64,000 nt of DNA from a virus, in the IMG/VR virus record IMGVR_UViG_3300031772_000023, positions 3,985 to 67,984 of that record, one strand, 5' to 3'. A program made the position numbers and the translations under genes. This document shows positions 40,358 through 60,047 of the stretch, piece after piece (within the stretch, counting starts at the first letter, position 1; every line of letters begins with the position of its first letter). The notes beneath the pieces were generated by a model. The model saw only the letters and a list, made by a program, of their open reading frames with translations, ran no database searches and was not told the origin of the DNA.

Positions 40358-40669
40358 TTTATCATCACCCACACTTCCCTATCATCATGACTATTGTAAC
40401 TAATAGAAATTTTATTATGACAAAAATCATGGGAATATAAAATATGCTTTTCTTCTTTTTCTTCTTTTTATTCTTTTTCATAGTATATTCCTAATCTCAT
40501 ACAAAGAGAAGGAAACATACTGAATAAGTTAGGGTATAAATAGTGTCGAAATTGACATTAGAGGATGAGAAGTATATTTTTTATAAACAAAACATTTCCT
40601 GTTCAAAAATATCAACATGGACAGGATTATTCATATTTGTGTTTGATTATTAGTTAGTTATACTGTTGG

Positions 40670-40685
40670 AATACATATACATGTT
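40670..40685 (+). repeat. attI-like site, partial copy
   Basis: AATACATATACATGTT identical to 44706-44721 and 59658-59673. Confidence 0.75.
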
Positions 40686-41167
40686 AGCAGAAATGGCTAC
40701 GACCCTACTAACAAGGATAACCATCGTGTAAGTTATCTTTCTTGTCTGTATAAAAAGAACCCGAAACACTGTGCATTGAACTATCACAAGTAATTTCTTC
40801 CCAAATTGTAACACCTAAATCTTCAATCTTTCTTTCTGTACGTTTTAAAAATTCATTAGCTAACTCTTCACTTTCAAATCCTTCGTTGTTTGGGCATCTG
40901 TAAATACGACCTAACACTTCGCCTGATTGGTGCAAAGCAAGATAACCCCAAGCACCTCCGTCTTGTAAATCACTTCCGCAAATTGGACATTCCATTGTAT
41001 AAAATTTAAAATTAATACCCTTGTAAATTAACCGCCACTTCTGCTAACAAGGGTTTGTAGCAATAGGGGCAGAAGGAACTAAATTGAGCCTTAGTACTTC
41101 TATTAGGCTGCGGTGCTATATTGAACAGTAGTGCTATAAATCCCCACTGCTACAAGCCCCAAACGTT
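40683..41167. mobile_element. Solo satellite gene cassette
   Basis: GTTAGCAGAAAT...ACTTCTGCTAAC inverted ends, then hairpin 41046-41167 (gggtttgtagca / tgctacaagccc). Confidence 0.85.
40708..40995 (-). CDS. Cassette gene, Cys-containing hypothetical protein
   Basis: CPICG start; fills the cassette. Confidence 0.7.
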   Translation of the reverse strand: MECPICGSDLQDGGAWGYLALHQSGEVLGRIYRCPNNEGFESEELANEFLKRTERKIEDLGVTIWEEITCDSSMHSVSGSFYTDKKDNLHDGYPC

Positions 41168-43288: not shown

Positions 43289-43313
43289 TACGTGAGAAAT
43301 TTTAAAAGGTTAC
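43289..43313 (-). promoter_or_regulatory. ECF-sigma-like promoter motif, copy 3
   Basis: Minus strand GTAACCTTTTAAAATTTCTCACGTA. Confidence 0.6.
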
Positions 43314-43816
43314 AATATTTTTTTAATTATTATTTCAACTCTCTGATTTTTTCTTCTACACTTAAACTGCTCAGGTGGAATTGATTTAATAAATTCTGGA
43401 CTATCTCCGGAAATTATACCCAAAGTAGAGAAACAGTCATAAAGTACTTTTCTTTTACTTGGCAAGTTATCTTCTGTATCAGAAAGTTGCGACACGAATG
43501 ACTTGAACGAAATCGAAACTATATCTTTAAATTTAGGAGGATTTAAAGCCGTTAATCTCCACATCATTGCTTTTTTTCTCTTTAATCTATTAGTCCAATG
43601 CTCAGACATTAATCCATTTCTTCCATTAAGCCCCGGTATAAGCCCAGCAAGTGTTATTTTAACCCAACCTTCACCTATCTCTATTGTATCGCTTACGGTG
43701 GTCTCGCTGAGTGAACTACGGCCTAGTTTTACGGCCCTAGGAACAGATATAGGCTTTATAATAGCTTTTCGTCCGTATTTGGCTTGATATTCGGAAGCGG
43801 ACATTTGTTCGGTCAT
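43310..43816 (-). CDS. RusA-like Holliday junction resolvase
   Basis: PGLN...DTEDNL...K.LYD...GII.GDS...RVEI. Confidence 0.55.
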   Translation of the reverse strand: MTEQMSASEYQAKYGRKAIIKPISVPRAVKLGRSSLSETTVSDTIEIGEGWVKITLAGLIPGLNGRNGLMSEHWTNRLKRKKAMMWRLTALNPPKFKDIVSISFKSFVSQLSDTEDNLPSKRKVLYDCFSTLGIISGDSPEFIKSIPPEQFKCRRKNQRVEIIIKKIL

Positions 43817-43826
43817 TATGTTGATT

Positions 43827-44666
43827 TTAAAAGTTTATATTGTTTATTGGAGACTGTATTTTTGAAATTAAGTTGTGTGAGATATGAGTATAGATTTCAG
43901 TCGTTCTTACGTCTGAATGACCAGCTAGTCTTTTTATAAGTAAAATATCTGTACCCATTTCTACCATGTGTGTGAAAGTGCAATGACGGATAAGGTGTGT
44001 ATAAACTCTTTTAGAAAGTCCTGCCGATTTAGCGAGTTGTTTTATTACCTCGCCAACTGATCTTGCCGAATATTGCAAATCATTTTGTCCATTAAAAACA
44101 TAAATAACGGATTTGTATTCTCTGTAATATTTTTCGAGCAATGGGATAACGTTAGGATTCAATCCTACCTGCCTGTCCTTTTTACCCTTTGCTTGAATAA
44201 TATTTATTATCATCCTACTTCTATCAATATGTGACCATTTTAAATTTATTATCTCAGATACACGAAGGCCGCATGAATATAGTAAAGCAAAAATAGTTTT
44301 GTGTTTCAGATTCTCACATACATTAAACATTCTCTGTATTTCCTCTTGAGATAAAACTATTGGCAGCTTTTTAGATTTCCTCGGACGCTCTATATATTTG
44401 AATTTCTCAATTCCAACATGAGCGACCTTTTCATAATAAATCTTTATTGCCGAATGATAACCGGAATGGGTTGATGGTTCTTGAAATTGACCAAGGAATT
44501 GAATTATCATTTCGTGATTAATTCTATCGGGATGAGTAACTTCTTTCCTTTCAAAGTGCGCAAGGAATCCAGTAAAGTTACTACAATAATTACTTACTGA
44601 TCTAGGAGAGTATTTTCTAAACTCCATATACTTTCTGAGTTGATTGGTATGCTCTGAAATATTCAT
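43827..44666 (-). CDS. Tyrosine recombinase, integron-integrase-like but without the IntI-specific insertion
   Basis: SAM-like N-terminus (YSPRSVSNY), KKLPIVLSQEE, catalytic GLRVSE / AKGKKDR / HLIRH / AGH / IYTH. Confidence 0.92.
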   Translation of the reverse strand: MNISEHTNQLRKYMEFRKYSPRSVSNYCSNFTGFLAHFERKEVTHPDRINHEMIIQFLGQFQEPSTHSGYHSAIKIYYEKVAHVGIEKFKYIERPRKSKKLPIVLSQEEIQRMFNVCENLKHKTIFALLYSCGLRVSEIINLKWSHIDRSRMIINIIQAKGKKDRQVGLNPNVIPLLEKYYREYKSVIYVFNGQNDLQYSARSVGEVIKQLAKSAGLSKRVYTHLIRHCTFTHMVEMGTDILLIKRLAGHSDVRTTEIYTHISHNLISKIQSPINNINF

Positions 44667-44697
44667 TTGATTACTGTTTAATTATTAGATAGTTACA

Positions 44698-44721
44698 TAA
44701 TATGTAATACATATACATGTT
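44698..44721 (+). repeat. attI-like primary site
   Basis: TAATATGTAATACATATACATGTT, 31 bp upstream of the recombinase start; ends in the first GTT of the array; no hairpin. Confidence 0.8.
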
Positions 44722-44733
44722 CTACGCAATTGT

Positions 44734-45012
44734 TCAAGGGGCAACAGCCACAGCCGTTTTACTATTCTGTATTTCTTCATGCTTTTCAAGTTCCTCTTTG
44801 AAATTGTGCATTGCAGAAATCATACAAGTTAATCCCCCTTCGTAGTTTGCAATCCATTCTTCCCAACCATACGAGCGTTTAATATCGTGCATCTTACCTC
44901 TCGTTCTATCTATCTCACATCTGAGTTCTTCAATTAATTCACTCATCGGTTTATCCATTTCATCTGCACTTTTGTAGTAAATTGGATTTTGGTCTTTGTT
45001 TTTTCTTTCCAT
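44734..45012 (-). CDS. Cassette 1 hypothetical protein
   Basis: Inside GTTCTACGCAATTGTTCAAGGGGC / GCCCCTTGAACAACTGACGTAGAAC inverted ends. Confidence 0.7.
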   Translation of the reverse strand: MERKNKDQNPIYYKSADEMDKPMSELIEELRCEIDRTRGKMHDIKRSYGWEEWIANYEGGLTCMISAMHNFKEELEKHEEIQNSKTAVAVAP

Positions 45013-45070
45013 TGTGTTTTATTTTTTAGTTATTAATTTCTTACAGCCGCCCCTTGAACAACTGACGTAG

Positions 45071-45151
45071 AACAAGCGGGTTTAATTCCATTGTCAAAAT
45101 CATTTCATCGTTGCGGGATATTTTGCCAACGAAATAAACCCGCAGGACGTT
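45071..45151 (+). repeat. attC-like hairpin 1
   Basis: AAC-aa-gcgggttta...taaacccgc-aggac-GTT. Confidence 0.8.
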
Positions 45152-45180
45152 ATATTCAATTCGTTTTTTCAATTTAAAAA

Positions 45181-45558
45181 TTAAGAGGTTGCTTCGTTGT
45201 GGCAACTGCAATCACATATACTTTTTGGAAACTCTCCGCAATCGCAATTTTCGCAAGTTCTCCATTTGGGTAATTTTTTTGTGCCTTTAATAAACTTCTG
45301 CCATTCATAATTATTTTTTGGTTCATAGTTCCATGCTTTTCTCAATTCATCTTCGGTGAAAAGTGTTTTGTTTTCGGTAATGATGCGATTGAGCATATCA
45401 ATTTTGTCCTCATAGTATTTTGCCCTGCCATTATCATCTTCAAATTGTAGTGCAAATTCATTCATCGCATCTAAAACTTCTTTCGTGAAGTATTCTGTAT
45501 TGCCACTTACATTTTTGAACGGACAATGTTTCTCTAAAATTTCTTTTGCTGTTTTCAT
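45181..45558 (-). CDS. Cassette 2 hypothetical protein
   Basis: MKTAKEIL..., Cys-rich C-terminus. Confidence 0.7.
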   Translation of the reverse strand: MKTAKEILEKHCPFKNVSGNTEYFTKEVLDAMNEFALQFEDDNGRAKYYEDKIDMLNRIITENKTLFTEDELRKAWNYEPKNNYEWQKFIKGTKKLPKWRTCENCDCGEFPKSICDCSCHNEATS

Positions 45559-45616
45559 TTTGATTGTAGTTTATATTGTGAAAGTATTTTTAAATTGAAA
45601 AAACGAACTGGAATAT

Positions 45617-45678
45617 AACAAGGGATTAAAAGAAATTGGCTGAAAAAAGAAGCCAACTTCTTTAATCCCCGATGCGTT
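45617..45678 (+). repeat. attC-like hairpin 2
   Basis: AAC-aa-gggattaaa...ttggct / agccaa...tttaatccc-cgatgc-GTT. Confidence 0.85.
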
Positions 45679-45728
45679 GTGCGCAATTTTTTGTGTATTA
45701 AAATGGGCAACAGCCACAGCCTGCATAC

Positions 45729-46346
45729 TTAAAATAGTTTTACCTGCATTGTTCGTTCTTTAAAATTTTTCATTGCATCATCATAATATCCTTTGTCAAT
45801 TTCACACGCCACCAAATCAAATTCTTTATAGTGGCAAGCAATGGCAATGTTTCCGCTTCCCAAATGTGTATCGAGTATTTTGTTTCCCTGCTCTGCATAT
45901 TCCTTTAGCAAAAATTCATATACTCTTATTGGCTTTTGGCATGGATGAACTTTGCCTCTGTAATCTCCTTTTGCCAATGGGTCACGCTTGTAAATTTTTG
46001 CGCATCTATCAAATGAAGTCCATGCCATTTCACATTCGGCATAAGTTCTATTTTTGAAACCTTCGCCTTTATCCCAAATCACAAAGCATCTTGTCGGTGG
46101 CAATCCAAAATAATTTCCACCCCATATAATTTGATTTTTGCTAACTCTAAATAGTTCATCAAAATATGCTTTGTCTGGGATTGCCTTATCCCAATCCTTC
46201 TTTTCAAAATTATTGAAGCCTTTATATCCAACATTGCCACCATCCATTCCAATTCCATAAGGCGGGTCAACTATTGCCAAATCAAAATGCTGGTCAGGAT
46301 ATTCTGCCATTAACTTCATGCAGTCTATGTTTCTAATATCAATCAT
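45729..46346 (-). CDS. Cassette 3 DNA methyltransferase (N6/N4, beta order)
   Basis: DPPYG before ILDTHLGSG; HPCQKP; likely start MIDIRNIDCM. Confidence 0.9.
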   Translation of the reverse strand: MIDIRNIDCMKLMAEYPDQHFDLAIVDPPYGIGMDGGNVGYKGFNNFEKKDWDKAIPDKAYFDELFRVSKNQIIWGGNYFGLPPTRCFVIWDKGEGFKNRTYAECEMAWTSFDRCAKIYKRDPLAKGDYRGKVHPCQKPIRVYEFLLKEYAEQGNKILDTHLGSGNIAIACHYKEFDLVACEIDKGYYDDAMKNFKERTMQVKLF

Positions 46347-46397
46347 AACAGCCGCCCATTTTAATACACAAAAAACTGTAAAGGCTAAAGCCCGCAC

Positions 46398-46504
46398 AAC
46401 ATAGGGTTTGCACTAATTTTCCTTCAACTTTTTTATTCTGTTTCATTTGTTTCAGTCAAACCGTTTGAGGCAAACGCCCTTCGGGTAGTCAAACCCTTGA
46501 ACTT
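46398..46504 (+). repeat. attC-like hairpin 3 (core CTT)
   Basis: AAC-at-agggtttg...caaaccct-tgaa-CTT. Confidence 0.7.
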
Positions 46505-46778
46505 AAATGCAATAGCTACGACCCCGCTCCGTAAGTTCAACTTTGCCATTTTTGCGTTCAACCAATTTATAATCCTCAAGTTTGTATATTGTTGCCCAAC
46601 TAATGTTTTTCATAGCATTATTTGAGTAAAAACATATTGCGTTAATGCCAGATAGATAGTATATAATCTCGTTAGCTTGTAAAGTTGATATTACTTCCTT
46701 TTGAGCTTTAGATAATTTAACCGCTACTGCATTTAACACGGGTTTGGCAAAAAAGCCGTTTTGGTCTTCGTTTGACAT
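46503..46778 (-). CDS. Cassette 4 winged-helix-like protein; starts inside hairpin loop
   Basis: LSKAQKEVI...LVE...ELTERG. Confidence 0.65.
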   Translation of the reverse strand: MSNEDQNGFFAKPVLNAVAVKLSKAQKEVISTLQANEIIYYLSGINAICFYSNNAMKNISWATIYKLEDYKLVERKNGKVELTERGRSYCI

Positions 46779-46852
46779 ATTGTTCTAATTTTTAAGTTTT
46801 GTAATTCTATTTGACTTTTCGTTTCGGCTTCTTCGCCAAGCCCGCAACCGTT
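46735..46852 (+). repeat. attC-like hairpin 4
   Basis: AAC-a-cgggtttggc...gccaagcccg-caacc-GTT. Confidence 0.85.
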
Positions 46853-46980
46853 GCACCGCAAGGCGGTGCAACTAAGTCCGCGTACCGCGTGCCGCCCTGC
46901 GGGCAACATCCCGTTTGATGCCAGCGCCGGGCATTGATGTGAAGCCACATCTGCCCGCGCCCGCACAAACGCGGACAGTT
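46850..46980. mobile_element. Cassette 5, gene-less GC-rich mini-cassette
   Basis: GTTGCACCGC-AAG-GCGGTGCAAC directly followed by hairpin gtccgcgt...acgcggac-a-GTT. Confidence 0.7.
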
Positions 46981-46999
46981 GGGCGCAATTTGTATTTGT

Positions 47000-47206
47000 T
47001 CAAAGGGGGCTAACAGCCAACGACACCTCATGGTCTATATAGTTATACATTTTCATTTTAAATTTCTCTTTCCCTCCCAATAATTTTATACTGCTTTTTT
47101 TAACCCACAAAAAAGATAATGGAATTGCTTTGTCCTTTATCGGCTTTCTTCCTGCACCTTTTCGTGCGCCCCCTCGTTTTGATTTTTTCATGTTCTCTGT
47201 CCGCAT
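47000..47206 (-). CDS. Cassette 6 small basic protein (GGARKGAGRKP motif)
   Basis: Same motif type as 60576..60767. Confidence 0.6.
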   Translation of the reverse strand: MRTENMKKSKRGGARKGAGRKPIKDKAIPLSFLWVKKSSIKLLGGKEKFKMKMYNYIDHEVSLAVSPL

Positions 47207-47264
47207 TGAAGCGCACGGCTGAACCGCAGAGAAACCGTCCTACTGACTTAGCAGAACAGCAGGA

Positions 47265-47693
47265 TTACGCTTCAACTGAATTATTCTTTTTCAGTAATTC
47301 TACAAGCTCCTCCATTGAATTTTTAAGCCGACTAATTTCATCTTTCAAATCGTCAATGATTGGCTCTTTATAAACATGGTATTTATTATAATTTGACCAG
47401 CCGATTGAATAAAGAAGTGACTGAATTTTGTAGGTGCTTCCCATGATTTTGCATTTATCTACATGAGAATAGTCGAGTTTATTCGGGTCTCTTTCTTCTT
47501 CTGGAGTACCATACTGATAATCCTTACCAAATTCAATCTGTTCAATAATAATATCATCCAAATCATCATTGGTTTCAATTATAAAAGAGGAATTATAATC
47601 CTCAATAAATAATGATTCACCTGTTTCAGTGATGACTCTGAATCCACATTCGTGTGGATGTTTTTTCCATGAAATAATCTTTTTTGTTTTCAT
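47265..47693 (-). CDS. Cassette 6 hypothetical protein
   Basis: Likely start MKTKKII, downstream of near-consensus -7 box at 47733-47740. Confidence 0.65.
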   Translation of the reverse strand: MKTKKIISWKKHPHECGFRVITETGESLFIEDYNSSFIIETNDDLDDIIIEQIEFGKDYQYGTPEEERDPNKLDYSHVDKCKIMGSTYKIQSLLYSIGWSNYNKYHVYKEPIIDDLKDEISRLKNSMEELVELLKKNNSVEA

Positions 47694-47855
47694 TGTGCTA
47701 AGTTTTAATTGTTGATGTTTTGATTTGTAACGTAAAGATAAGTATTTAATTTGAATTGGCAATAGGTTTAATCAAATATATTTTCAATACAAGAATAGTG
47801 CCAAAACAGCCGCCCCCTTTGAACAAATACAAACTGCAAGGGCTAAAGCCCGCCC

Positions 47856-47965
47856 AACATAGGATTTGCAGTAATTGGTCATTTCCTTTTTTATTTTTTT
47901 CATATTGATAAATGCCCAACCAAAACGAGGCGTTTTGCCCTTCGGGTACTCAAACCCTCACCATT
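47856..47965 (+). repeat. attC-like hairpin 6 (core ATT)
   Basis: AAC-at-aggatttg...caaaccct-cacc-ATT; related to hairpin 3. Confidence 0.7.
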
Positions 47966-48317
47966 ATCCGCAAGCGTTCAAAGGGGCAACAGCCTCCCAG
48001 CCAATCCCATTCGCCATTTCTTCTTTCAACATTTTCTGTAATGCAGGTAATATTTTCTCCGCAAATCTGTTACAAGCTGTTTCGCATTTTTTGCCATACA
48101 AAATGTAAGCCATTCCTGTGTACATTTTAGTTCCGAAGTAACCAATATTTAAACCGATTAGAAAATCTCGGAAATCTTTATCTCCGTAACTTCTCCAAGC
48201 AAAGGAAAGGTTTCCCCAATCCGTAACCGATGCGAACATTCCATCTGATGTTAGAACTATTTGTCCTAACCATTCTCCATTGTCGCCTTTCAGCGAGTAA
48301 CTTTTTGATTGTACCAT
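47964..48317 (-). CDS. Cassette 7 hypothetical protein
   Basis: Stop codon overlaps the junction core. Confidence 0.7.
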   Translation of the reverse strand: MVQSKSYSLKGDNGEWLGQIVLTSDGMFASVTDWGNLSFAWRSYGDKDFRDFLIGLNIGYFGTKMYTGMAYILYGKKCETACNRFAEKILPALQKMLKEEMANGIGWEAVAPLNACG

Positions 48318-48383
48318 TTTGTTTTTATGTTTTAGTTATTGTTTCAAGTTTCTTACAGCCGCCCCTTTGAACGCCAGACGGAT

Positions 48384-48462
48384 AACATCGGATATAGTCA
48401 AGTAAAATTTCCTTCTCATAGTTGCTATTGATAAATTTTCCCTGCCCATATCCGTCAGCGTT
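48384..48462 (+). repeat. attC-like hairpin 7
   Basis: AAC-at-cggatat...atatccg-tcagc-GTT. Confidence 0.75.
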
Positions 48463-48533
48463 AGCAGACATTGTAATTATTAAAAAAACAAAAGCCACCG
48501 CACTCTTTAAATTTTTCAAATTTATAAAATGTT

Positions 48534-49079
48534 TTATTTCGTAATCGTTTCAAACACTATCTTCTTTGGTAAAATATCCTTCGTAACATACACACTTGAA
48601 AACGGAGGGTTCAAACTCGGTTTTTGGTCTGCATAGCTTTTAAAGTAGCTTATCCGTTTATTAAAATACATTATTTCAAATTCGTTATCCTTAAACATAT
48701 TAAATCGTTTTTGGCTTTCAAACAATCCAACTACTCCAACAAGCATCGCAAATGGTTTTCCAAGTTCAAATAGTTTTTGGAATACTTCTGCTTTAATTGA
48801 GTAGGGCGGATTTGAAATAATGTAATCAAAGTTCACAAGAAATTCAGTTGTAAAAAAATCTCTACCATCTGAAATATGTGAGCAAATAGCATCGTGTCCT
48901 TGTTCTCTAAGCATTTTTACAAAGTTACTTTCTTCCGTATCAAACGGACACCACACAATACTTTTTGGCTTCAAGTATTTCATAAGCGGTTCTATTGCAT
49001 ATCTTGGTGTATAAAATTCATCATTCGGATTTATTTCTCCGTTCATTTCTGCTTTGTTTGTAATCTCGTCCAGTTTCAT
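48534..49079 (-). CDS. Cassette 8 small adenine methyltransferase-like protein
   Basis: DEFYTP, VWCPFD, DFF, IISNPPYS. Confidence 0.75.
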   Translation of the reverse strand: MKLDEITNKAEMNGEINPNDEFYTPRYAIEPLMKYLKPKSIVWCPFDTEESNFVKMLREQGHDAICSHISDGRDFFTTEFLVNFDYIISNPPYSIKAEVFQKLFELGKPFAMLVGVVGLFESQKRFNMFKDNEFEIMYFNKRISYFKSYADQKPSLNPPFSSVYVTKDILPKKIVFETITK

Positions 49080-49176
49080 ATTTCTTAGTTTAAATTAAGA
49101 GCCGACACACACCTTCCCTTTTTGTTTTTTTAATAATTACAACGAGCCTACGCTCAAAATCCCACCGCACTCTGCT

Positions 49177-49235
49177 AACACTGGGTTTAACGTCAGTTTG
49201 CGAAAAGCAAACCGAACGTAAACCCAGATACCGTT
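49177..49235 (+). repeat. attC-like hairpin 8
   Basis: AAC-a-ctgggttta...taaacccag-atacc-GTT. Confidence 0.85.
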
Positions 49236-49458
49236 ATGCGTAATTATTCAGCAACGCCACTACCTTAACCGCCATTTCTCTATCACCCCAAAAGCCCTCA
49301 CACACTCTACGGTCACACCATAAATCTAAATGTGTTCGTGGCTTATCGTGTTCACCAATTTCATAGTATCTAACCTTCCCTCTAACCACTTCTCTGAACA
49401 CATAACTGCGCATAACAGGAAGATTAGAAGAAATTTCTTTTTTGTTTTCAGTTTCCAT
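49234..49458 (-). CDS. Cassette 9 hypothetical protein; starts inside hairpin loop
   Basis: ISSNLPVMRS is encoded by the hairpin arm. Confidence 0.65.
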   Translation of the reverse strand: METENKKEISSNLPVMRSYVFREVVRGKVRYYEIGEHDKPRTHLDLWCDRRVCEGFWGDREMAVKVVALLNNYA

Positions 49459-49546
49459 ATTGAGTTTTGTTTTTAATTATTAGCATTTCGTTTTCAATCA
49501 AAGTTTGCGGAGACAAAAAAGAAACTTCTCTAATCTCCGATGCGTT
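49414..49546 (+). repeat. attC-like hairpin 9
   Basis: AAC-a-ggaagattagaagaaatttc...gaaacttctctaatctcc-gatgc-GTT. Confidence 0.85.
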
Positions 49547-49575
49547 ACCCAAAATAAAAGTGGGCAATTAGCATC

Positions 49576-49725
49576 CTACTTTGAAAATGCTTTTATATAT
49601 TGTTTAATCGTTGCCTTTTTAAATCCTCGTCTCATTAATTGGCTAACGATTACACCATTTGTTTTTCCGTCTCCGAGCAAGTATCTTACTTGCCATTGGA
49701 GGTCTCGCTTTTCTTCGTTTGTCAT
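49576..49725 (-). CDS. Cassette 10 small protein (49 aa, not in ORF track)
   Basis: MTNEEKRDLQWQVRYLLGDGKTNGVIVSQLMRRGFKKATIKQYIKAFSK. Confidence 0.6.
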   Translation of the reverse strand: MTNEEKRDLQWQVRYLLGDGKTNGVIVSQLMRRGFKKATIKQYIKAFSK

Positions 49726-49775
49726 AATATTTATTTTAAAAGTTAATTTTCGTTTTGCCCACTTTTACTTCGGGT

Positions 49776-49868
49776 AACATAGTTTTGTGTGCCAGTTGGC
49801 TTCACCATTTTATTTTCTTCAATTTGTTTCATCCAACCGTTCCCTTCGGGCAACAAAACTTGTCCGTT
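49776..49868 (+). repeat. attC-like hairpin 10
   Basis: AAC-at-agttttgt...acaaaact-tgtcc-GTT. Confidence 0.75.
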
Positions 49869-49886
49869 ATCGGTCAGCACTACATT

Positions 49887-50138
49887 TCATTGAAAAGATA
49901 ATGATTCTAACTCCCACTTAGCGGACTTATGCGAAAAAACTAATGCTGTACCCCATCCTGCATGTGGGACTAAAACATCATAACTAATATACTTCCAATT
50001 TTCAAAGTATGTTTGTAAAAACACTACATACCCATCAATTTCTATTGGTATCCAAGCAAACTTCTTTGCTTTACATACTTGTCCAATAAAATAATTTTCT
50101 TTAACAAGTATCTTTTTTTCTCTTTTTTTAAACTTCAT
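49887..50138 (-). CDS. Cassette 11 hypothetical protein
   Basis: KFAWIPI..G..VFLQ.Y. Confidence 0.65.
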   Translation of the reverse strand: MKFKKREKKILVKENYFIGQVCKAKKFAWIPIEIDGYVVFLQTYFENWKYISYDVLVPHAGWGTALVFSHKSAKWELESLSFQ

Positions 50139-50199
50139 AAAACATTAATTTTTGACGTTAGCAATAACTCCTCTATAATTTTACCCGTGCCGAACCGAT

Positions 50200-50326
50200 A
50201 ACAAGGGGTTTTGTGCTATTGCGGCTTGACGTTCTTAATTTCAACATTTGTTTTTCAATCGGGCTGCATCTGTGGTTTGAACTGCGGTAATTCTATTTCC
50301 GCAACAGACACAAAGCCCTGTTCGTT
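50200..50326 (+). repeat. attC-like hairpin 11
   Basis: AAC..gggttttgtgctattgcgg...ccgcaacagacacaaagccc..GTT. Confidence 0.85.
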
Positions 50327-50350
50327 ATAAAACATTGCCATTCCAGTTCA

Positions 50351-50521
50351 TCAATGAAAGTGGGTGCATCTATAACATTCAACATTTCTATTTTCACATT
50401 CCCTATGCCAAAAGGAATGGCAACGCTTTATAACAGGAAGATTTGAAGAAATTTTATTTACTTCCTTATCTGCTTTTTTAGGCGTTTTTGCTTTAACTTT
50501 CTTTACTGCTTTTTTCATCAT
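50351..50521 (-). CDS. Cassette 12 small Cys/His protein (56 aa, not in ORF track); starts inside hairpin loop
   Basis: MMKKAVKK...ISSNLPVIKRCHSFWHRECENRNVECYRCTHFH. Confidence 0.55.
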   Translation of the reverse strand: MMKKAVKKVKAKTPKKADKEVNKISSNLPVIKRCHSFWHRECENRNVECYRCTHFH

Positions 50522-50569
50522 TTGTGCTTTTAAGTCGTAAATAAAACATTCTCAAATCTCCGATGCGTT
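50432..50569 (+). repeat. attC-like hairpin 12
   Basis: Same arm family as hairpin 9. Confidence 0.85.
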
Positions 50570-50580
50570 AGTGGCAAGTG

Positions 50581-50766
50581 CTACATTTCGTCTTCGTAAA
50601 AACATTTGCCTTTAGTGCTAAAATATTCTTTTGCCCACTCTTTACCTTTCCCGTTCAATAATGCTTCTACAAAATCAGCTATGATATTTGCACCGTCACA
50701 ATGTCCATCTGGACCATCGTTAATCATTATGTCGCTAATAATATTTTCAATTTGTTCTTTGTTCAT
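50581..50766 (-). CDS. Cassette 13 hypothetical protein
   Basis: DGPDGHCDG motif; fills the cassette. Confidence 0.65.
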   Translation of the reverse strand: MNKEQIENIISDIMINDGPDGHCDGANIIADFVEALLNGKGKEWAKEYFSTKGKCFYEDEM

Positions 50767-50795
50767 TTTTCGTTTAATTTACCGCACCAGCCACT

Positions 50796-50890
50796 AACAG
50801 TGGTTTTGTGCTATTATTTTGGCTATAAAATTTATCTTTAAAGGTAAGTGTCTGCAAGCCAAAATAACAGACACAAAGCCACGAAACGTT
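50796..50890 (+). repeat. attC-like hairpin 13
   Basis: AAC-a-gtggttttgtgctattattttggct...agccaaaataacagacacaaagccac-gaaac-GTT. Confidence 0.9.
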
Positions 50891-50901
50891 GTAGGCAATG
50901 G

Positions 50902-51168
50902 CTAAGAGTGTTCAATCATTGCCTGTGCTATAAAAATTGTTTCCTCTCCCTTATGCACAAATTGTTGATTAGGTATTACTTTCATCACATAGCCACTTGT
51001 GTATTCAAGCACCGTGTCTGTTTCACTATCATAGTCGGCAACAATTTTATCCGACCACTCAAATAGCACTTGCACAGGCAAATTAACTATTCGGATGTCG
51101 CCACTGCCTACAACATTGTGTTGCTGCAATTGTGGCAATTCCCACTTAAATTCATCTTTGTTTTTCAT
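50902..51168 (-). CDS. Cassette 14 hypothetical protein; starts inside hairpin loop
   Basis: Likely start MKNKDEF; LPQLQQHNVVGS is encoded by the arm. Confidence 0.65.
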   Translation of the reverse strand: MKNKDEFKWELPQLQQHNVVGSGDIRIVNLPVQVLFEWSDKIVADYDSETDTVLEYTSGYVMKVIPNQQFVHKGEETIFIAQAMIEHS

Positions 51169-51237
51169 ATCAAGTTTTTGTTTGTTATTCAACTTTTGTC
51201 TTTCAAATGCCACAACTGACAGCAACACCTTACCGTT
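51112..51237 (+). repeat. attC-like hairpin 14
   Basis: AAC..gtgttgctgcaattgtggca...tgccacaactgacagcaacac..GTT. Confidence 0.85.
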
Positions 51238-51260
51238 ATACGCAAGGCTACCATTCATTT

Positions 51261-51752
51261 TCATATTGAGCATTTCGGTAAGGTTTTAAAGATTGTATCA
51301 CCCTCCCATCCACGCTTCATTTCTAAAATACAGGTTTGAACTCTGCTTCCTTTGAAAGTGCTTCGTGGCAAATGTGTAATTGATTTTAGCCCCCATTCCA
51401 TAATATCCTTTGTCCTTTTCTCTCCGTTTATAATTGCCAAATAAGGCATCAGAGCAATTATATTATCCGTCATATCCATACACTTGTAAAGGATATCATA
51501 CCCTTGCTTCATTGGGCTAAATGGTGGGTTCATCACTATCCATTCAAATTGGCTTTCCACCATTTTATTAAAATCATTTGGCACAATCACTTTTCCGTAT
51601 TGCTCTAATGCCTTTACAAGTTTTCCTTTGCCAGCAGTGGGCTCTAAAATCAAACCTGTATTTCCAATAAGAAATGAAGCCATATACTCACACACATTTT
51701 CGGGTGTTTGAAAATTATCGCCCCAATCTTTAAAATCTTTTTCTTCTTCCAT
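51261..51752 (-). CDS. Cassette 15 small adenine methyltransferase-like protein
   Basis: FQTP, ILEPTAGKG, IVMNPPF. Confidence 0.8.
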   Translation of the reverse strand: MEEEKDFKDWGDNFQTPENVCEYMASFLIGNTGLILEPTAGKGKLVKALEQYGKVIVPNDFNKMVESQFEWIVMNPPFSPMKQGYDILYKCMDMTDNIIALMPYLAIINGEKRTKDIMEWGLKSITHLPRSTFKGSRVQTCILEMKRGWEGDTIFKTLPKCSI

Positions 51753-51787
51753 ATCAATATTTTCTCTTAATTAACCGCCCAGCGTAT

Positions 51788-51876
51788 AACACGGTATTTG
51801 TGCTATTTTGCCATTGGGCTTTATCTATAATTTGAACATTTGTGCAAGGCAAAACAGACACAAATACCCATCCGTT
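51788..51876 (+). repeat. attC-like hairpin 15
   Basis: AAC-ac-ggtatttgtgctattttgcc...ggcaaaacagacacaaatacc-catcc-GTT. Confidence 0.9.
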
Positions 51877-51905
51877 AGTTACCTGCAAGTGCTACGATAC
51901 TGCTA

Positions 51906-52631
51906 CTATTGAACATTTGTGGGAGAAAATTTAAAAAGTTTTTCCACGCTCTTAAAATTATTCTGTTTACTTAACGTGTTACTTAATTCCATCTCCCAAA
52001 CACATTCAAAGTCAATAGGTGCGTTATATTCACTCACAAATACTGTGCGTCCTTCTTTTGATTTATCCCTACACCATTCCCAAAATTCAATATGGTCTAT
52101 TCCGTTTTTGTATTTTATAGTCCCTTCGTATGGTGGGTCGCAATAAATGATTGAGTTTGGTGGTATTTCTAAATTCTTATAATCAGATTGAACAAAATGA
52201 ACTGATATTAAATTAGGTATTTGCTTTATCAAACCACGTCTTGCTTCATCTTGATGATTAGGTAATTTTCCGTTTTTTAATCTTTTTGATTCTTGATAGT
52301 CACTCAAATAACCACCAAACCATTTCCCTCCATAGCTACAACATATTCCTGCCCATACAGTCATTTTACTATCTCTATCTTGGTTTTGTTTAATATATTC
52401 ATATTCATCCCTACTTATTCTTAATGGTGGTGTCCATCCATCTTGCAATGCTTTATAAAATTCAATTAAATGTTTGTTATAATCAGAAGCAAGTCTTAAA
52501 CCTTCAACTTTATCGGTGATGTTTGCTCCACCAACAAAAGGCTCAACAAACCATTGATTAGGTTTTCTATCATTTAGTATTATTGGTAAAATGTGTTTTG
52601 CAATTCTACTTTTATTTCCTGTATATCTCAT
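51906..52631 (-). CDS. Cassette 16 Dam/D12-class DNA adenine methyltransferase
   Basis: YTGNKS, FVEPFVGG, IYCDPPY, VFVSEY. Confidence 0.9.
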   Translation of the reverse strand: MRYTGNKSRIAKHILPIILNDRKPNQWFVEPFVGGANITDKVEGLRLASDYNKHLIEFYKALQDGWTPPLRISRDEYEYIKQNQDRDSKMTVWAGICCSYGGKWFGGYLSDYQESKRLKNGKLPNHQDEARRGLIKQIPNLISVHFVQSDYKNLEIPPNSIIYCDPPYEGTIKYKNGIDHIEFWEWCRDKSKEGRTVFVSEYNAPIDFECVWEMELSNTLSKQNNFKSVEKLFKFSPTNVQ

Positions 52632-52702
52632 ACTCTAAAACTTTTTTAATTTTCTATTCGTTTTCAAATCAAAATCCTGCTAAATTAACCGCACCAGCAG
52701 GT

Positions 52703-52766
52703 AACAGCACCCTTAACGCAAGTGGGCTGAAAAAAGAAGCCCACCAGCGTAAGGCTGCAATCCGTT
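52703..52766 (+). repeat. attC-like hairpin 16
   Basis: AAC-a-gcacccttaacgc..gtgggct / agcccac..gcgtaaggctgc-aatcc-GTT. Confidence 0.8.
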
Positions 52767-53028
52767 ATAGGAAATTTATGGATTTTAGGTATTTCTCAAC
52801 ACCTTCCTTTATTCCTAAACTTTGGTTGTGTATTCCTTCACATTCCATTGATTGACAAAAATCCATAAACATTCCTATAACATCGGGTTTATGAAATTTT
52901 TTAACCTCACTTTCTGCAAACTCCGAGAGTAGGTCTTCTAATCTAAAGTAGTTTTCAGGTGCGGTTTCATCAGCAACATTTGCACCTACATAAATCTTTT
53001 TGCTTCTTAAAAATTCTCTTGTATTCAT
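52765..53028 (-). CDS. Cassette 17 hypothetical protein; about half encoded inside the hairpin
   Basis: VKKFHKPDVIG is encoded by the arm. Confidence 0.65.
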   Translation of the reverse strand: MNTREFLRSKKIYVGANVADETAPENYFRLEDLLSEFAESEVKKFHKPDVIGMFMDFCQSMECEGIHNQSLGIKEGVEKYLKSINFL

Positions 53029-53077
53029 TTTGTTATATTTAAACGGTTAAAAAACTATCATAAACCCGAATCACGTT
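52879..53077 (+). repeat. attC-like hairpin 17 (longest, 199 bp)
   Basis: AAC-a-tcgggtttatga..ttttttaacc...ggttaaaaaa..tcataaacccga-atcac-GTT. Confidence 0.85.
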
Positions 53078-53085
53078 ATGCGTAA

Positions 53086-53376
53086 TTAAAAGAACTCGTT
53101 AATCATAGCATCTACTGTTGGCTTTAAGAACCTGAAATACTCTCTTTTGTGTTCAGCAATATCTTCTTCATTTATCCCAAACCAAAAGATAATTGGCAAA
53201 GGAATTTCAAACTCTTTTGATATTGTTTCTAATACGCTAATGTTTGGAGTTTTTGCTCCAGTTTCAATTTGTGATAAGTATGTTTGAGTTATACCTATCA
53301 ATTTTGCAAACTCCGACTGATTTAATTGCGGTGTTCGCTCTTTTCTAATGTTTCTAATTGCTATTCCTACATTCAT
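53086..53376 (-). CDS. Cassette 18 XRE-family HTH regulator with its own promoter
   Basis: NQSEFAKLIGITQTYLSQIETG; TACCTTTG -7 box at 53398-53405. Confidence 0.85.
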   Translation of the reverse strand: MNVGIAIRNIRKERTPQLNQSEFAKLIGITQTYLSQIETGAKTPNISVLETISKEFEIPLPIIFWFGINEEDIAEHKREYFRFLKPTVDAMINEFF

Positions 53377-53478
53377 AATTTTATGTTATTTATTAAGCAA
53401 AGGTAATAATTATTTCTGACAAAACAAATTTATCTTAAAAATATTAACTACGCATAATAGCAGAAATAAAAAATTTGC

Positions 53479-53861
53479 TCATAGCGTTCTGTGCTTCGGT
53501 TCAACATACGCCACGCCAATCCTATCAAACAGGTCTTTTTCCTCACGCACTTCATAGCTTTTGCCATTCTGCATAAGGTAGCCACCTTCGCTTTTTGCCA
53601 TTGGTTCACTATCTCCGCTATGCCATCCTGAAAAAGACCAGCTTGATAGGGCTTTGGAATTGCTACTATCTCAATGTCCTTTACTTCGCTTTTCTCCCTG
53701 CGTATGCTTCCTGCAATCTCACATCTTATGCAATGTGGTTGTAGCAATTCCAACACACGCACCGCTATCGAATGGGCTTCATCGTAAGCAAATTTTTTAC
53801 TATCCGCTAACACACCATTGGAAGTAATGGCGGTCTTTTCGGTATCATTTTGCTTTTTCAT
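53479..53861 (-). pseudogene. Cassette 19 family X DNA polymerase-like gene with internal deletion and frameshift
   Basis: IAGSIRR..VKDIEIV in one frame; EEKDLFDRIGVAYVEPKHR-stop in another frame; middle missing. Confidence 0.75.
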
Positions 53862-53928
53862 ATTATTTATCTTTTAGTTGTTAATCAAAATTATCTTTTC
53901 TATTCCGCCACTACTCCAATGGTCGGTT
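53809..53928 (+). repeat. attC-like hairpin 19
   Basis: AAC..accattggaagtaatggcgg...ccgccactactccaatggt..GTT. Confidence 0.85.
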
Positions 53929-54154
53929 AGCCGCCATTTAAAAGACGCTTTATCGTTCTATAATCTTCAACCTCTTTATGTAATGCTTTTAATCCTTCAA
54001 TTTGCATTTCTAAGTCTTGTTTTACCACTTCGTTTGTTTGTCTAACCAGTTCTTTTTGTAAGTCTGCTGCAATCCGTAACAATAAACGGCTGCTAACAAC
54101 ACCTAAACAAGATGGCTGGTTTTCGTTTTCTAATGAAGTTTTGTCTGTATTCAT
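53927..54154 (-). CDS. Cassette 20 coiled-coil protein; starts inside hairpin loop
   Basis: QPSCLGVVSSR is encoded by the arm. Confidence 0.65.
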   Translation of the reverse strand: MNTDKTSLENENQPSCLGVVSSRLLLRIAADLQKELVRQTNEVVKQDLEMQIEGLKALHKEVEDYRTIKRLLNGG

Positions 54155-54217
54155 AATTTTGTGATTTTAATTAAGTTTTGTGGTGGAATACGCCACCTCG
54201 TTTAGCTGCAAAATGTT
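54095..54217 (+). repeat. attC-like hairpin 20
   Basis: AAC..ctaaacaagatggc...gccacctcgtttag..GTT. Confidence 0.75.
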
Positions 54218-54227
54218 AGCACCAATA

Positions 54228-54413
54228 CTACTTTAGTGCTTCGTCCAATCTTCCGAGAACAACTAACAATGTTTTGCGTTTAATATCGCATTTCATTGCA
54301 GCTTCAAAATCCTCTGCTTTTTTATAGTCTTCAATGTGGTTGTATAGTTGCTCTATTCGATTAACCATATCCATTCTCATTCTTTCAATGTTTTCTCTTA
54401 ATGTTTCTTTCAT
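54228..54413 (-). CDS. Cassette 21 hypothetical protein
   Basis: Inside GTTAGCACCAATAC / GTACTGGTGCTAAC inverted ends. Confidence 0.65.
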   Translation of the reverse strand: MKETLRENIERMRMDMVNRIEQLYNHIEDYKKAEDFEAAMKCDIKRKTLLVVLGRLDEALK

Positions 54414-54451
54414 CGTTTTTAATTTTATCGTTAATAATCCGTACTGGTGCT

Positions 54452-54500
54452 AACAGCGTATAAAAGCCATTGAAAAAACGGCTCTTATACGCCAACCGTT
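54452..54500 (+). repeat. attC-like hairpin 21 (shortest, 49 bp; end of array)
   Basis: AAC-a-gcgtataaaagcc...ggctcttatacgc-caacc-GTT. Confidence 0.85.
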
Positions 54501-54542
54501 CCAGTAAATCTGTTTTTGATAGTTAACTTAGTTTTCATAGTA

Positions 54543-56140: not shown

Positions 56141-56299
56141 TTAAAAAGGGGTTTTATTTGTTTCTGAAATTGACCTATTAGCCGATTCTTCATTTTTAAG
56201 TACTTGATATAAAGCGTTACATATTTGAGAATTATATGATACTCCATATCTTTTCTTTTCTTCCATCCATTTACTGAAATCAGAATGTATTCTAATGTT
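56141..56299 (-). pseudogene. Ribbon-helix-helix-like small gene whose 5' end is interrupted by a cassette
   Basis: NIRIHSDFSKWMEEKKRYGVSYNSQICNAL; stop abuts the dnaB ATG. Confidence 0.4.
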
Positions 56300-56762
56300 A
56301 GCGGTAATACTGCGACATCGCTTCGTAGAAAGTTTTTGCCATATTTTCAAATTCTGCCAAATCAATGTTTTTGCTTACACACATATCAATTCTATCTTCA
56401 CCTAAAACCATACACTCATACATTATTCCTATTCTGTTTGCGTATGGGTCACGGTCTGCGTACTTTCTAAAATCATAAAACAATATGCCTATTTGATAAA
56501 TTTTATCTTCACCATTTTTTAAAGTTTTCCAATAACAGAAATCCTCGTTTTTATGATTTTGAACGTATCTTCTATATCCTATTTCTTTTAGTTTAGTTTC
56601 CGTTTCAGATAACCATTCATCCCAAGAAGTACTACCGCTAACATCCGCTATAAGTAATGGCGGTTGAAGTGGTAAATCAATGTTTGTGCTTTTTATTGTC
56701 ATTTGTACTGAATTTAAAGTGAGTAGTTCTAAATCCGCCACTACTCATAGCGGAGTACCGTT
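56297..56762. mobile_element. Satellite cassette upstream of dnaB
   Basis: GTTAGCGGTAATAC / GTACTACCGCTAAC ends; hairpin 56640-56762. Confidence 0.85.
56298..56702 (-). CDS. Cassette gene, hypothetical protein; starts inside hairpin loop
   Basis: Likely start MTIKSTN; PPLLIADVSGS is encoded by the arm. Confidence 0.65.
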   Translation of the reverse strand: MTIKSTNIDLPLQPPLLIADVSGSTSWDEWLSETETKLKEIGYRRYVQNHKNEDFCYWKTLKNGEDKIYQIGILFYDFRKYADRDPYANRIGIMYECMVLGEDRIDMCVSKNIDLAEFENMAKTFYEAMSQYYR

Positions 56763-59649: not shown

Positions 59650-59673
59650 TAATATGTAATACATATACATGTT
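59650..59673 (+). repeat. attI-like site, full 24-bp copy
   Basis: Identical to 44698-44721. Confidence 0.8.
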
Positions 59674-59681
59674 AGCCACAA

Positions 59682-59903
59682 TTATAGTGGAAGATACACA
59701 CCATTTTTTACATTAAAATCGAAATCGTGTTTATCTATACTCAAATAAAATTCCTTTTTACCGCTAATCTTATTAGCTTTCTTTTTACACCACAACACAA
59801 TAATAAAATCATCAACAACACCTCTGACTTCACACGAATCTATGTTGTTAATGTTGTTTTCATTGAAATACTTTTTGAATTTTAATCCTACTTTTAATTC
59901 CAT
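59682..59903 (-). CDS. Cassette gene, hypothetical protein
   Basis: Fills the cassette. Confidence 0.65.
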   Translation of the reverse strand: MELKVGLKFKKYFNENNINNIDSCEVRGVVDDFIIVLWCKKKANKISGKKEFYLSIDKHDFDFNVKNGVYLPL

Positions 59904-60047
59904 TTTATTTTCGTTTTAAATTGTTAATAATCAAATAACTGTGGCTAACAGCGTATATAAGAAATGGCACATAAACATTCGTGCTTAATTTTAACATTCT
60001 ACAAGTGCCACTTCTCATATACGCAAAACGTTAAACGCAAATAAAAA

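Follow-up and report, generated by a model that had tools for sequence, protein, structure and literature searches.

This analysis concerns a stretch of 64,000 nucleotides of viral DNA, bases 3985-67984 of the 67,984-bp IMG/VR virus record IMGVR_UViG_3300031772_000023 (record completeness estimated at 91%), which is referred to below as the window. Segment 44719-54500 of the window is probably a mobile gene cassette array of an integron-like system found in Bacteroidota phages, with the tyrosine recombinase encoded beside it as the likely catalyst. The array is non-random in its architecture, its hairpin stems covary, and the linkage of recombinase, attI-like site and array is conserved; exchange at the GTT and AAC boundaries, one relocation included, is seen in natural relatives. 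We consider the system to be real and integron-like, and we infer both the role of the enzyme and a mechanism that uses single-stranded DNA.

In integrons, a recombinase gene lies beside the site at which the array starts, the cassettes are separated by hairpins closed by AAC and GTT, exchange takes place at GTT, and the sequence that precedes a cassette's own hairpin is complementary to the start of that cassette; arrays without a recombinase also exist. Each of these features has its likeness here: the recombinase gene adjoins a conserved site where the array starts, imperfect hairpins closed by AAC and GTT part the cassettes, exchange is at GTT, cassette starts are complementary to what precedes the hairpin of the same cassette, and recombinase-less arrays occur in relatives.

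Architecture of the array

Segments that run from GTT to AAC are called bodies (K) below, and those from AAC to GTT hairpins (H). Cut at every GTT core, 44719-54500 yields 21 units of 128-982 bp and contains 20 hairpin segments of 49-199 nt, which agrees with an initial annotation of the window (21 units of about 130-990 bp, twenty hairpins of 49-199 bp). The units are as follows, where ORF denotes an open reading frame, HTH helix-turn-helix and z the folding z of the hairpin segment.

Unit 1, 44719..45148, minus strand: body 44719-45073, ORF 44734-45012 (92 aa), hairpin 45071-45151, z = -2.84
Unit 2, 45149..45675, minus strand: body 45149-45619, ORF 45181-45558 (125 aa), hairpin 45617-45678, z = -4.69
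Unit 3, 45676..46494, minus strand: body 45676-46400, ORF 45729-46397 (N6_N4 DNA methylase), hairpin 46398-46497, z = -1.92
Unit 4, 46495..46849, minus strand: ORF 46503-46778 (91 aa), hairpin 46735-46852 overlapping the ORF start, z = -1.18
Unit 5, 46850..46977, no strand: gene-less 23-nt palindromic body 46850-46872, GC-rich hairpin 46870-46980, z = -4.87
Unit 6, 46978..47962, minus strand: body 46978-47858, ORFs 47000-47206 and 47265-47762, hairpin 47856-47962
Unit 7, 47963..48459, minus strand: body 47963-48386, ORF 47964-48317 (117 aa), hairpin 48384-48462, z = -1.66
Unit 8, 48460..49232, minus strand: body 48460-49179, ORF 48534-49079 (adenine methylase-like), hairpin 49177-49235, z = -5.72
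Unit 9, 49233..49543, minus strand: body 49233-49416, hairpin 49414-49546, boundary-crossing ORF 49234-49458, z = -2.29
Unit 10, 49544..49865, minus strand: body 49544-49778, ORF 49576-49725, hairpin 49776-49868, z = -2.22
Unit 11, 49866..50323, minus strand: body 49866-50202, ORF 49887-50138, hairpin 50200-50326, z = -3.03
Unit 12, 50324..50566, minus strand: body 50324-50434, hairpin 50432-50569, boundary-crossing ORF 50351-50521, z = -0.83
Unit 13, 50567..50887, minus strand: body 50567-50798, ORF 50581-50766, hairpin 50796-50890, z = -4.89
Unit 14, 50888..51234, minus strand: body 50888-51114, hairpin 51112-51237, ORF 50902-51273 through both, z = -3.50
Unit 15, 51235..51877, minus strand: body 51235-51790, ORF 51261-51752 (weak methylase match), hairpin 51788-51880, z = -3.60
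Unit 16, 51878..52763, minus strand: body 51878-52705, ORF 51906-52631 (D12 adenine methylase), hairpin 52703-52766, z = -4.44
Unit 17, 52764..53074, minus strand: body 52764-52881, hairpin 52879-53077 (199 nt), boundary-crossing ORF 52765-53028
Unit 18, 53075..53455, minus strand: body 53075-53455, ORF 53086-53376 (HTH regulator), ends in AAT, no hairpin
Unit 19, 53456..53925, minus strand: ORF 53448-53861 (137 aa), hairpin 53809-53928, z = -5.46
Unit 20, 53926..54214, minus strand: body 53926-54097, segment 54095-54217 (z = +0.55), boundary-crossing ORF 53927-54154
Unit 21, 54215..54497, minus strand: body 54215-54454, ORF 54228-54413, hairpin 54452-54500, z = -3.61

The array terminates at the GTT at 54498. 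It had been proposed that every unit begins with GTT and closes with the reverse complement of its own start. This holds for at least 19 bodies of the window, three of them outside the array, on which a repeat search and targeted scans revealed private inverted ends (GTT.../...AAC) of 10-35 nt, but two units are degenerate: 46495-46849 is without paired arms, and 53075-53455 ends in AAT and is without a hairpin. The body of Unit 7 opens with A in place of G.

Each AAC...GTT segment was likewise expected to fold. Nineteen of the 20 were folded as DNA, the 199-nt hairpin (52879-53077) being left out, and 18 of them close as a stem that starts 1-3 nt past AAC and stops 5-9 nt ahead of GTT; the exception is 54095-54217, which has no closing hairpin fold. 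The folding z was -2 or lower in 13 of the 19, and for ten none of 200 shuffles folded as well. In Unit 3 the 3' core of the hairpin is degenerate (no GTT), and in Unit 5 the spacer asymmetry of the hairpin is opposite to that of all others; this unit was a minus-strand hit in a rule-based scan. The rule required AAC, a gap of 0-3 nt, a 9-bp stem in which one mismatch was allowed, a gap of 3-9 nt and GTT. It picked out 26 sites on the plus strand, of which 25 lie within 40-61 kb, where ten shuffles produced 4-10; the minus strand yielded 13 sites and its shuffles 3-11.

On the plus strand the sites share a frame, C-N7-AAC-A ... C-GTT-A-N6-A. A directly follows AAC in all 23 hairpins of the window, C directly precedes GTT in 18, A directly follows GTT in 17, and the 11th base counted from the G of GTT is A in 19; the mirror position ahead of AAC is C in 14, arm bulges of 1-26 nt displacing the rest. 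Where body ends pair, A stands opposite C at position 11 in at least 19 bodies, always with identical polarity; among 30 chance 8-nt seed pairs from 1-40 kb this polarity was seen once, merely as a near-match (position 10). On the plus strand, two A.C mismatches flank the 10-bp stem adjacent to the hairpin; on the gene strand they are two G.T wobbles. The same frame is found in Lillamyvirus, which is without the recombinase (11/14 for the A after AAC, 13/14 for the C before GTT and 13/14 for the A at position 11), and also in the 635-kb phage LR745206.1.

The hairpins of the window form small paralogous groups. A consensus of six hairpins retains TAAC/GTTA and the 7-bp base of the stem, and across these six there are compensatory double changes at 6 of 12 consensus pairs. 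The earlier suggestion that structure rather than sequence is conserved held in part only, in view of the paralogous families and the conserved sequence frame. A loop motif, CATTAAAACGA, is common to compact hairpins of Polaribacter phage P12002L and LR745206.1, and was not seen in the hairpins of the window. An Rfam scan of the window gave one sub-threshold match (E = 0.073), located outside the array.

ORFs 49234-49458, 50351-50521, 50902-51273, 52765-53028 and 53927-54154 span a border between body and hairpin; exchange of modules could thereby exchange the N-termini of proteins. ORFs 49234-49458 and 50351-50521 begin inside paralogous hairpins, and 50902-51273 runs through an entire hairpin.

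Three other explanations of the repeats were rejected. Intrinsic terminators are not in question, as no array hairpin was called a terminator on the gene strand (four terminator-like sites lie elsewhere). A transposon, or a miniature inverted-repeat transposable element, with terminal inverted repeats would carry the same repeats in all copies, with target-site duplication and a transposase, whereas here every unit has arms of its own; a scan of 20 window ORFs revealed no transposase. A standard 28-bp duplex site at all junctions was set aside because spacer lengths differ between the two sides of the hairpin and because the stem half is not an inverted repeat of GTT-N7-A.

The recombinase, its site and their linkage to the array

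The features relevant to this section, including three units outside the array, are listed here.

43827..44666, minus strand: tyrosine recombinase, Xer/IntI-like, 279 aa; Pfam PF00589 (Phage_integrase), 3.2e-35
44702..44721, plus strand: attI-like site, ending with the first GTT; upstream of the recombinase, 36-55 nt from its start codon
40666-40685: second attI-like copy, 2 mismatches; a unit follows
59654-59673: third attI-like copy, exact; a unit follows
40666..41167, minus strand: unit outside the array, near the second attI-like copy; body 40683-41048, hairpin 41046-41167
56297..56762, minus strand: solitary unit outside the array; body 56297-56642, hairpin 56640-56762
59654..60032, minus strand: unit outside the array, at the third attI-like copy; body 59671-59949, hairpin 59947-60032

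The 279-aa recombinase is the likely catalyst in this phage because it is encoded 36-55 nt from the attI-like site at the end of the array. The attI-like 20-mer occurs three times in the window (at 40666, 44702 and 59654), where 0.04 occurrences would be expected, and the similarity among the three copies ends at GTT. One reading divides the site into 11 + 6 + 11 bp, GTT-N7-A being one of the 11-bp arms.

This arrangement is not peculiar to the window. In all 13 non-redundant viral recombinase loci with enough upstream sequence (17/17 with near-duplicate loci included), a conserved TAT-rich site lies about 50-60 nt ahead of the recombinase start, the site in turn being preceded by a cassette end, ...YAAC; in the closer relatives the attI-like site is ATnnTATATGTAnTACAT. 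The array-end cassette adjoining the recombinase site retains the position-11 signature in the nine loci inspected by eye. Around the recombinases of 16 non-redundant loci, the 97 kb upstream contain 67 matching-orientation hairpins and the 136 kb downstream contain 17, the downstream density being near the shuffled level.

Similar starts are found in arrays of other phages. The first array site of Lillamyvirus (about 2020-2037 in L025/L026) carries the ATGTAATA core of the window's attI-like site, and the Lillamyvirus phages with this core have no recombinase. In P12002L, a sequence of about 66 nt that ends at GTT is present twice, at 29166-29236 and 37200-37270, each copy opening a cassette run; this duplication parallels the three attI-like copies of the window, and the sequence differs.

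The solitary unit at 56297-56762 lies within the 5' end of a small ORF that precedes dnaB, and its in-silico deletion (56298-56760) yields a 55-aa ORF whose stop abuts the DnaB start. Insertion of the unit into a gene is suggested solely by this restored reading frame; a tblastn search of all collected loci gave no homologue for the 51-residue part of the small ORF (best E = 0.15). The first 9 bases of the unit recur right after it.

The initial annotation was correct in describing a complete tyrosine recombinase gene. Judged by curated scores, the protein resembles the Xer families without being a member of any, as it reaches 177.3 bits with NCBIfam XerA (cut-off 220), 152.1 with XerD (329.6) and 151.8 with XerC (335). 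The integron integrase model TIGR02249 gives 162.7 bits (cut-off 265). Its closest solved relative is the Vibrio integron integrase VchIntIA (2a3v, 5e-28), yet that alignment is split: recombinase residues 180-205 stand opposite IntI residues 180-248, and about 43 residues are absent at the IntI-specific insert, the additional segment (I2 helix region) of the IntI clade. The alignment to archaeal XerA (4a8e) is unbroken. With these residues absent and a score below the integron-integrase cut-off, the enzyme is not an integron integrase.

The family to which the recombinase belongs is large, with at least 120 clusters at 62% identity or more; those listed are all metagenomic and nearly all of 275-285 aa. 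The few named clusters are labelled XerD or integrase, and PHROGs files the protein under 'integrase'. Four of nine relatives in genome collections are in Bacteroidota metagenome-assembled genomes (MAGs). Searches limited in reach found relatives of at least 55% identity on viral or MAG contigs only, and on no isolate chromosome; one of 401 sampled Bacteroidota genomes contained a close relative, namely the MAG that served as the search centre. Three Bacteroidota genomes encode recombinases 40-44% identical to that of the window, and in the two that were examined no matching-orientation hairpins were found upstream of the gene; these chromosomal proteins are a different kind of recombinase.

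Exchange among natural relatives, cargo and genome context

Two Flavobacterium phages of equal length (38,268 bp), lillamy9-1 and lillamy9-3, are 100% identical over the array blocks between two sites. A unit of 439 bp, made up of a body and the hairpin on its high-coordinate side, occupies 5637-6075 in one and 2037-2475 in the other. The junctions at both sites can be resolved only to a shared GTTAT or GTTATAA, with which a G|TT crossover is compatible. The move is a natural relocation with the geometry of an integron cassette and, since the Lillamyvirus records contain no tyrosine recombinase, it occurred without a recombinase in cis. In five Lillamyvirus isolates, 44 out of 53 block-junction groups in the array lie at most 13 nt from C|GTT, as do 16.5% of random positions; these groups go back to some 11-12 independent junctions that recur. 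The groups that miss it are those at the array's first site (A|GTT) and at an AAC-side boundary. The initial annotation had anticipated that relatives would differ exactly at the GTT cores, and gain, loss and relocation in these close relatives bear this out.

Unrelated phages share single modules. The D12 methylase body (51878-52705) is 90% identical to phage LR745206.1, exactly from GTT to AAC, and the hairpins on both sides of it are unrelated between the two; the HTH body (53075-53455) is 94.6% identical to Lillamyvirus, from GTT to the AAC-equivalent. Conversely, hairpins are shared alone from AAC to GTT: 51788-51880 is about 77% identical to L019/L020, and 59947-60032 is 81% identical to LR745206.1. 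Arms alone are shared too: L004 and L022 retain those of body 48460-49179 around a different ORF. The notion of a cassette as a gene with its own hairpin is compatible with the lillamy9 relocation; in these comparisons body and hairpin are shared separately, which a single G|TT crossover does not predict. Over evolutionary time, then, bodies and hairpins are exchanged as separate units.

Metagenomic contigs were also considered. Those of the window's probable source sample break at 50796/50853, 52677/52702 and 54452/54497, and those of other samples have joints ending at 46852, 48463, 49780, 50566 and 54215, all at or near AAC/GTT cores, with matched sides of just 20-35 nt at 90% likeness. The joints were rejected as evidence of excision or of habitat; other phages with similar modules may explain such short matches. 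No excised circle was seen, in data that consisted of contigs and not of raw reads.

An alternative dispenses with a dedicated recombinase. The hairpins between early genes might be regulatory or serve RNA processing, with units exchanged by illegitimate or short-homology recombination at the junction motif, as has been proposed for the PeSL promoter/stem-loop motifs of T4-type phages, sequence-conserved repeats that recombine by homology (PMC2839356, PMC4122927). Besides this precedent, the motif (A)ACGTTA is present at nearly all boundaries, one Lillamyvirus deletion has a 12-nt direct repeat at its flanks, and the hairpins are transcribed with the genes, so that G.U wobbles would pair in mRNA. 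Nevertheless we hold this explanation to be improbable. The relocated unit has just 5-7 nt in common with the two target sites; private inverted ends and two framed mismatches would be purposeless in a promoter/terminator model; the four gene-strand terminator-like sites all lie away from the array hairpins; the number of sigma-70-like promoters is not raised (45 compared with 36.6 +/- 6.7, in a scan for the sigma-70 type, which does not cover Bacteroidota promoters); and an attC of P12002L is an IntI1 substrate (PMC9892861, in the part available). PeSL are the nearest non-integron analogue: they too involve small accessory genes in a plastic phage region, stem-loop flanks and modular shuffling. 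PeSL are repeats with a sequence-conserved promoter and terminator, whereas in the window the hairpin sequences differ except within the small paralogous groups, no more than a core of 5-12 nt is shared, each unit has its private arms, and the array is linked to a recombinase with its site.

The cargo of the array consists mainly of anti-restriction DNA methylases and small early genes. The methylases are of the N6_N4 (45729-46397), EcoRI/Dam-like (48534-49079) and D12 (51906-52631) types, with a further weak match (51261-51752), and the remaining cargo is one HTH regulator and small ORFs without a family match. In the same Flavobacterium phages, Nilsson et al. 2020 (PMC7077304) linked the presence or absence of methylases to plating efficiency across hosts; hairpins, inverted repeats, cassettes and integrase go unmentioned in the available part of the paper. 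Flavobacterium phages match single cassettes of the window at 88-95% nucleotide identity, and the host is likely to be one of the Bacteroidota.

The window has a G+C content of about 0.33, with large plus-strand ORFs at 1-40 kb and minus-strand genes at 41-61 kb. The minus-strand block contains the array, the recombinase and three further genes of note:

54740-56140, minus-strand block: DnaB helicase (Pfam DnaB_C, 1.1e-79)
43310-43816, minus-strand block: weakly RusA-like Holliday-junction resolvase, directly downstream of the recombinase (PHROG E = 1.1e-6)
41190-41591, minus-strand block: NinB/Orf-like mediator, beyond the RusA-like gene, downstream of the recombinase

The array had been placed in the replication region of the phage, and these neighbours confirm that it lies in a replication/recombination arm. 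Contig depth is 3-4 times the neighbouring level at 46044-46417, 50532-50905 and 54272-54645 in the probable source sample and is also elevated there in three further samples; these segments are probably common to many phages of those communities.

Proposed mechanism and relation to known systems

The mechanism proposed is drawn by analogy with attC and with Xer acting on folded phage DNA. Each junction would fold, as DNA, into a recombination site resembling the attC of integrons. A 10-bp outer stem would form between N7-AAC, where one body ends, and GTT-N7, where a body starts; inside it would lie a lopsided unpaired spacer (1-2 nt after AAC and 5-8 nt before GTT) and then the variable hairpin. 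In an excised circle, body end, hairpin and body start are predicted to fold into a single long imperfect hairpin, with the order private outer stem, A.C mismatch with or without a bulge, 10-bp AAC/GTT stem, second A.C, spacer, hairpin stem and variable tip. The recombinase would bind two boxes, the 10-bp stem and the hairpin base; in the 11 + 6 + 11 reading of the attI-like site, position 11 would be the outer edge of a binding arm. The GTT after a hairpin, or a position next to it, would be cut by a tyrosine recombinase, and the cut strand would be exchanged with another hairpin site or with the conserved attI-like site, so that units could be excised, inserted and reordered. The exchange would involve one strand, with the junction resolved by replication. 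Should both strands be able to fold and to serve as substrates, crossovers are predicted at C|GTT and AAC|A, which would account for the separate swapping of bodies and hairpins, and the asymmetry of mismatch and wobble would set the strand preference. Because the genes occupy the strand opposite to that of integron cassettes, each moved unit would bring a hairpin upstream of its gene. The array may thus be a shuffling store of counter-defence genes. We infer that the recombinase performs the chemistry, that its substrate is folded single-stranded DNA, and which strand is used.

Xer recombination takes place at dif and also at folded single-stranded phage sites (CTX-type IMEX elements). The enzyme of the window is Xer-sized, its attI-like site is readable as 11 + 6 + 11, and a folded hairpin could mimic a duplex site. 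Unlike the Xer/dif system, the window has no identified dif-like sequence, its arms are private to each cassette and there are many sites per genome; nothing ties a host Xer to these sites.

With respect to integrons, the integron-like layout described by the initial annotation was upheld as regards the AAC/GTT hairpins, the site and the array, but not as regards the type of integrase or the orientation of the genes, and the core consensus differs. The outer stem is of at least 10 bp and framed by two A.C mismatches, in place of the 7-bp GTTRRRY box; the spacer is lopsided (1-2 nt vs 5-8 nt); the recombinase is Xer-sized and without the IntI insert; the genes are on the opposite strand, so that the hairpin precedes the gene; a body can reassort without its hairpin and a hairpin without its body; one genome has three attI-like copies; and ORFs are able to run through hairpins.

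Several of these points weigh against the interpretation preferred here. Integron attC sites are imperfect palindromes (R''-L''...L'-R') with the cores RYYYAAC and GTTRRRY. Hairpins closed by AAC and GTT are present at 20 junctions of the window and there is covariation in their stems; the GTTRRRY core fits just 2 of about 22 unit starts. The genes of the window are on the strand opposite to integron cassettes: in an integron, genes would read away from the integrase, from a promoter at the attI end, whereas all cassette ORFs here are on the recombinase strand and read towards it. The IntI insert that the recombinase lacks is held necessary for the recombination of folded attC (PMC7790495, in the part available). 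Body or hairpin is shared separately in five cross-phage comparisons (two body-only, three hairpin-only), set beside the one relocation compatible with a gene moving with its own attC. No cassette differences were found among close recombinase-bearing pairs, L011/L012, L013-L015 and L019/L020 being identical through the array; the sole breakpoint between L013 and L014 is in a coding region unrelated to cassettes. Finally, in all seven phage records checked that have the same architecture (hemulen6-1, lillamy9-1, lillamy9-3, snork6-2, sniff9-1, P12002L and LR745206.1) there is no PF00589 match, while the control was matched in 14 of 14 genomes. Cassette movement therefore needs no recombinase encoded in cis, which is why a catalytic role is proposed, and not asserted, for the recombinase of the window. 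That the phage carries its own gene-shuffling platform, as first suggested, is thus favoured by the linkage of recombinase, site and array in 13/13 loci but not by these seven array-bearing records.

The recombinase-less arrays parallel the distinction between integrons and CALINs, clusters of two or more attC sites that have no integrase nearby (Lillamyvirus, P12002L and LR745206.1 are of this kind; the window, with a recombinase at the array end, is not); a host or helper enzyme fits as well. It is conceivable, then, that movement at the GTT cores is real and that its agent is a host Xer, another host recombinase or a co-infecting element acting in trans, the neighbouring enzyme being a lysogeny integrase or a Cre/Xer-type multimer resolvase at its own site. 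The seven records, with a relocation event among them, the PHROGs category, and the fact that a recombinase gene beside a short palindromic site has the look of a resolvase/site pair are all in keeping with this. We nevertheless think it unlikely, though deserving of serious consideration, since the conserved site ends exactly at a cassette boundary in 13/13 non-redundant loci, next to a first cassette with the position-11 signature, and three direct copies of the site in one genome would be hazardous for a resolvase or an attP. Moreover, the gene is located mid-operon between the array and the RusA-like and NinB genes, not at a genome end, and the near relatives are confined, within the limited reach of the searches, to viral and MAG contigs, the single one among the 401 sampled Bacteroidota genomes being the search-centre MAG.

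Clusters of attC sites in phages have been described before. Qi et al. 2023 (PMC9892861) found three complete integrons, one In0 and 17 CALINs in 10,705 phage genomes, one CALIN being a two-attC cluster with two methylases in P12002L, and showed that IntI1 integrated one predicted P12002L attC into attI1 at G|TT. P12002L has the body/hairpin architecture of the window around DNA methylase genes, at far more than two junctions; the attC recombined by IntI1 could not be mapped onto the hairpins found here. The statement in the initial annotation that no characterised example was known was accordingly too strong. In its available part that paper reads the sites as phage-borne integron components and describes no phage recombinase, attI-like site or private arms, and 'Flavobacterium' has no occurrence in its main text. 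A literature search that reached few subscription journals likewise found no description of a recombinase-headed phage array, of an attI-like site or of private arms, and the full CALIN list of PMC9892861 may include related phages.

If the phage attC clusters are read as Qi et al. read them, the array would be an ordinary bacterial integron fragment, a CALIN taken from a host chromosome. Detection of such clusters with integron tools and their recombination by IntI1 (PMC9892861, as above) are consistent with such an origin, which we find very improbable all the same: the architecture occurs, with phage-type cargo, in many unrelated phages, the G+C content of 0.33-0.40 matches that of the rest of the phage (about 0.33), the core consensus, gene orientation and extended arms are unlike those of integron cassettes, and the linked recombinase is not IntI.

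Returning to the integron-like array with its own recombinase, a more far-reaching version can be put forward tentatively, as a possibility to which we give somewhat less than even weight. The system could be a phage-native counterpart of integrons without IntI, in which an Xer-sized recombinase lacking I2 acts on folded single-stranded sites marked by two A.C mismatches, these mismatches marking the core stem instead of extrahelical bases. Acting on both strands, it would let gene bodies and hairpin modules reassort independently and would thus be a two-module combinatorial shuffler of anti-defence genes in Bacteroidota phages of 38 kb-635 kb, whose hairpin modules may hold upstream signals or even the first codons of ORFs, and would represent an independent or ancestral Xer route to hairpin recombination.

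Integron surveys based on IntI and attC profiles may overlook most such arrays. Both the sites and the enzyme are compact and suited to ordinary recombination assays. If the recombinase is the catalyst, integron-type gene capture would not be tied to IntI and its I2 helix, with direct bearing on the origin of integron integrases from Xer-like enzymes, and phages would have a dedicated means of exchanging their DNA methylases and further early genes.

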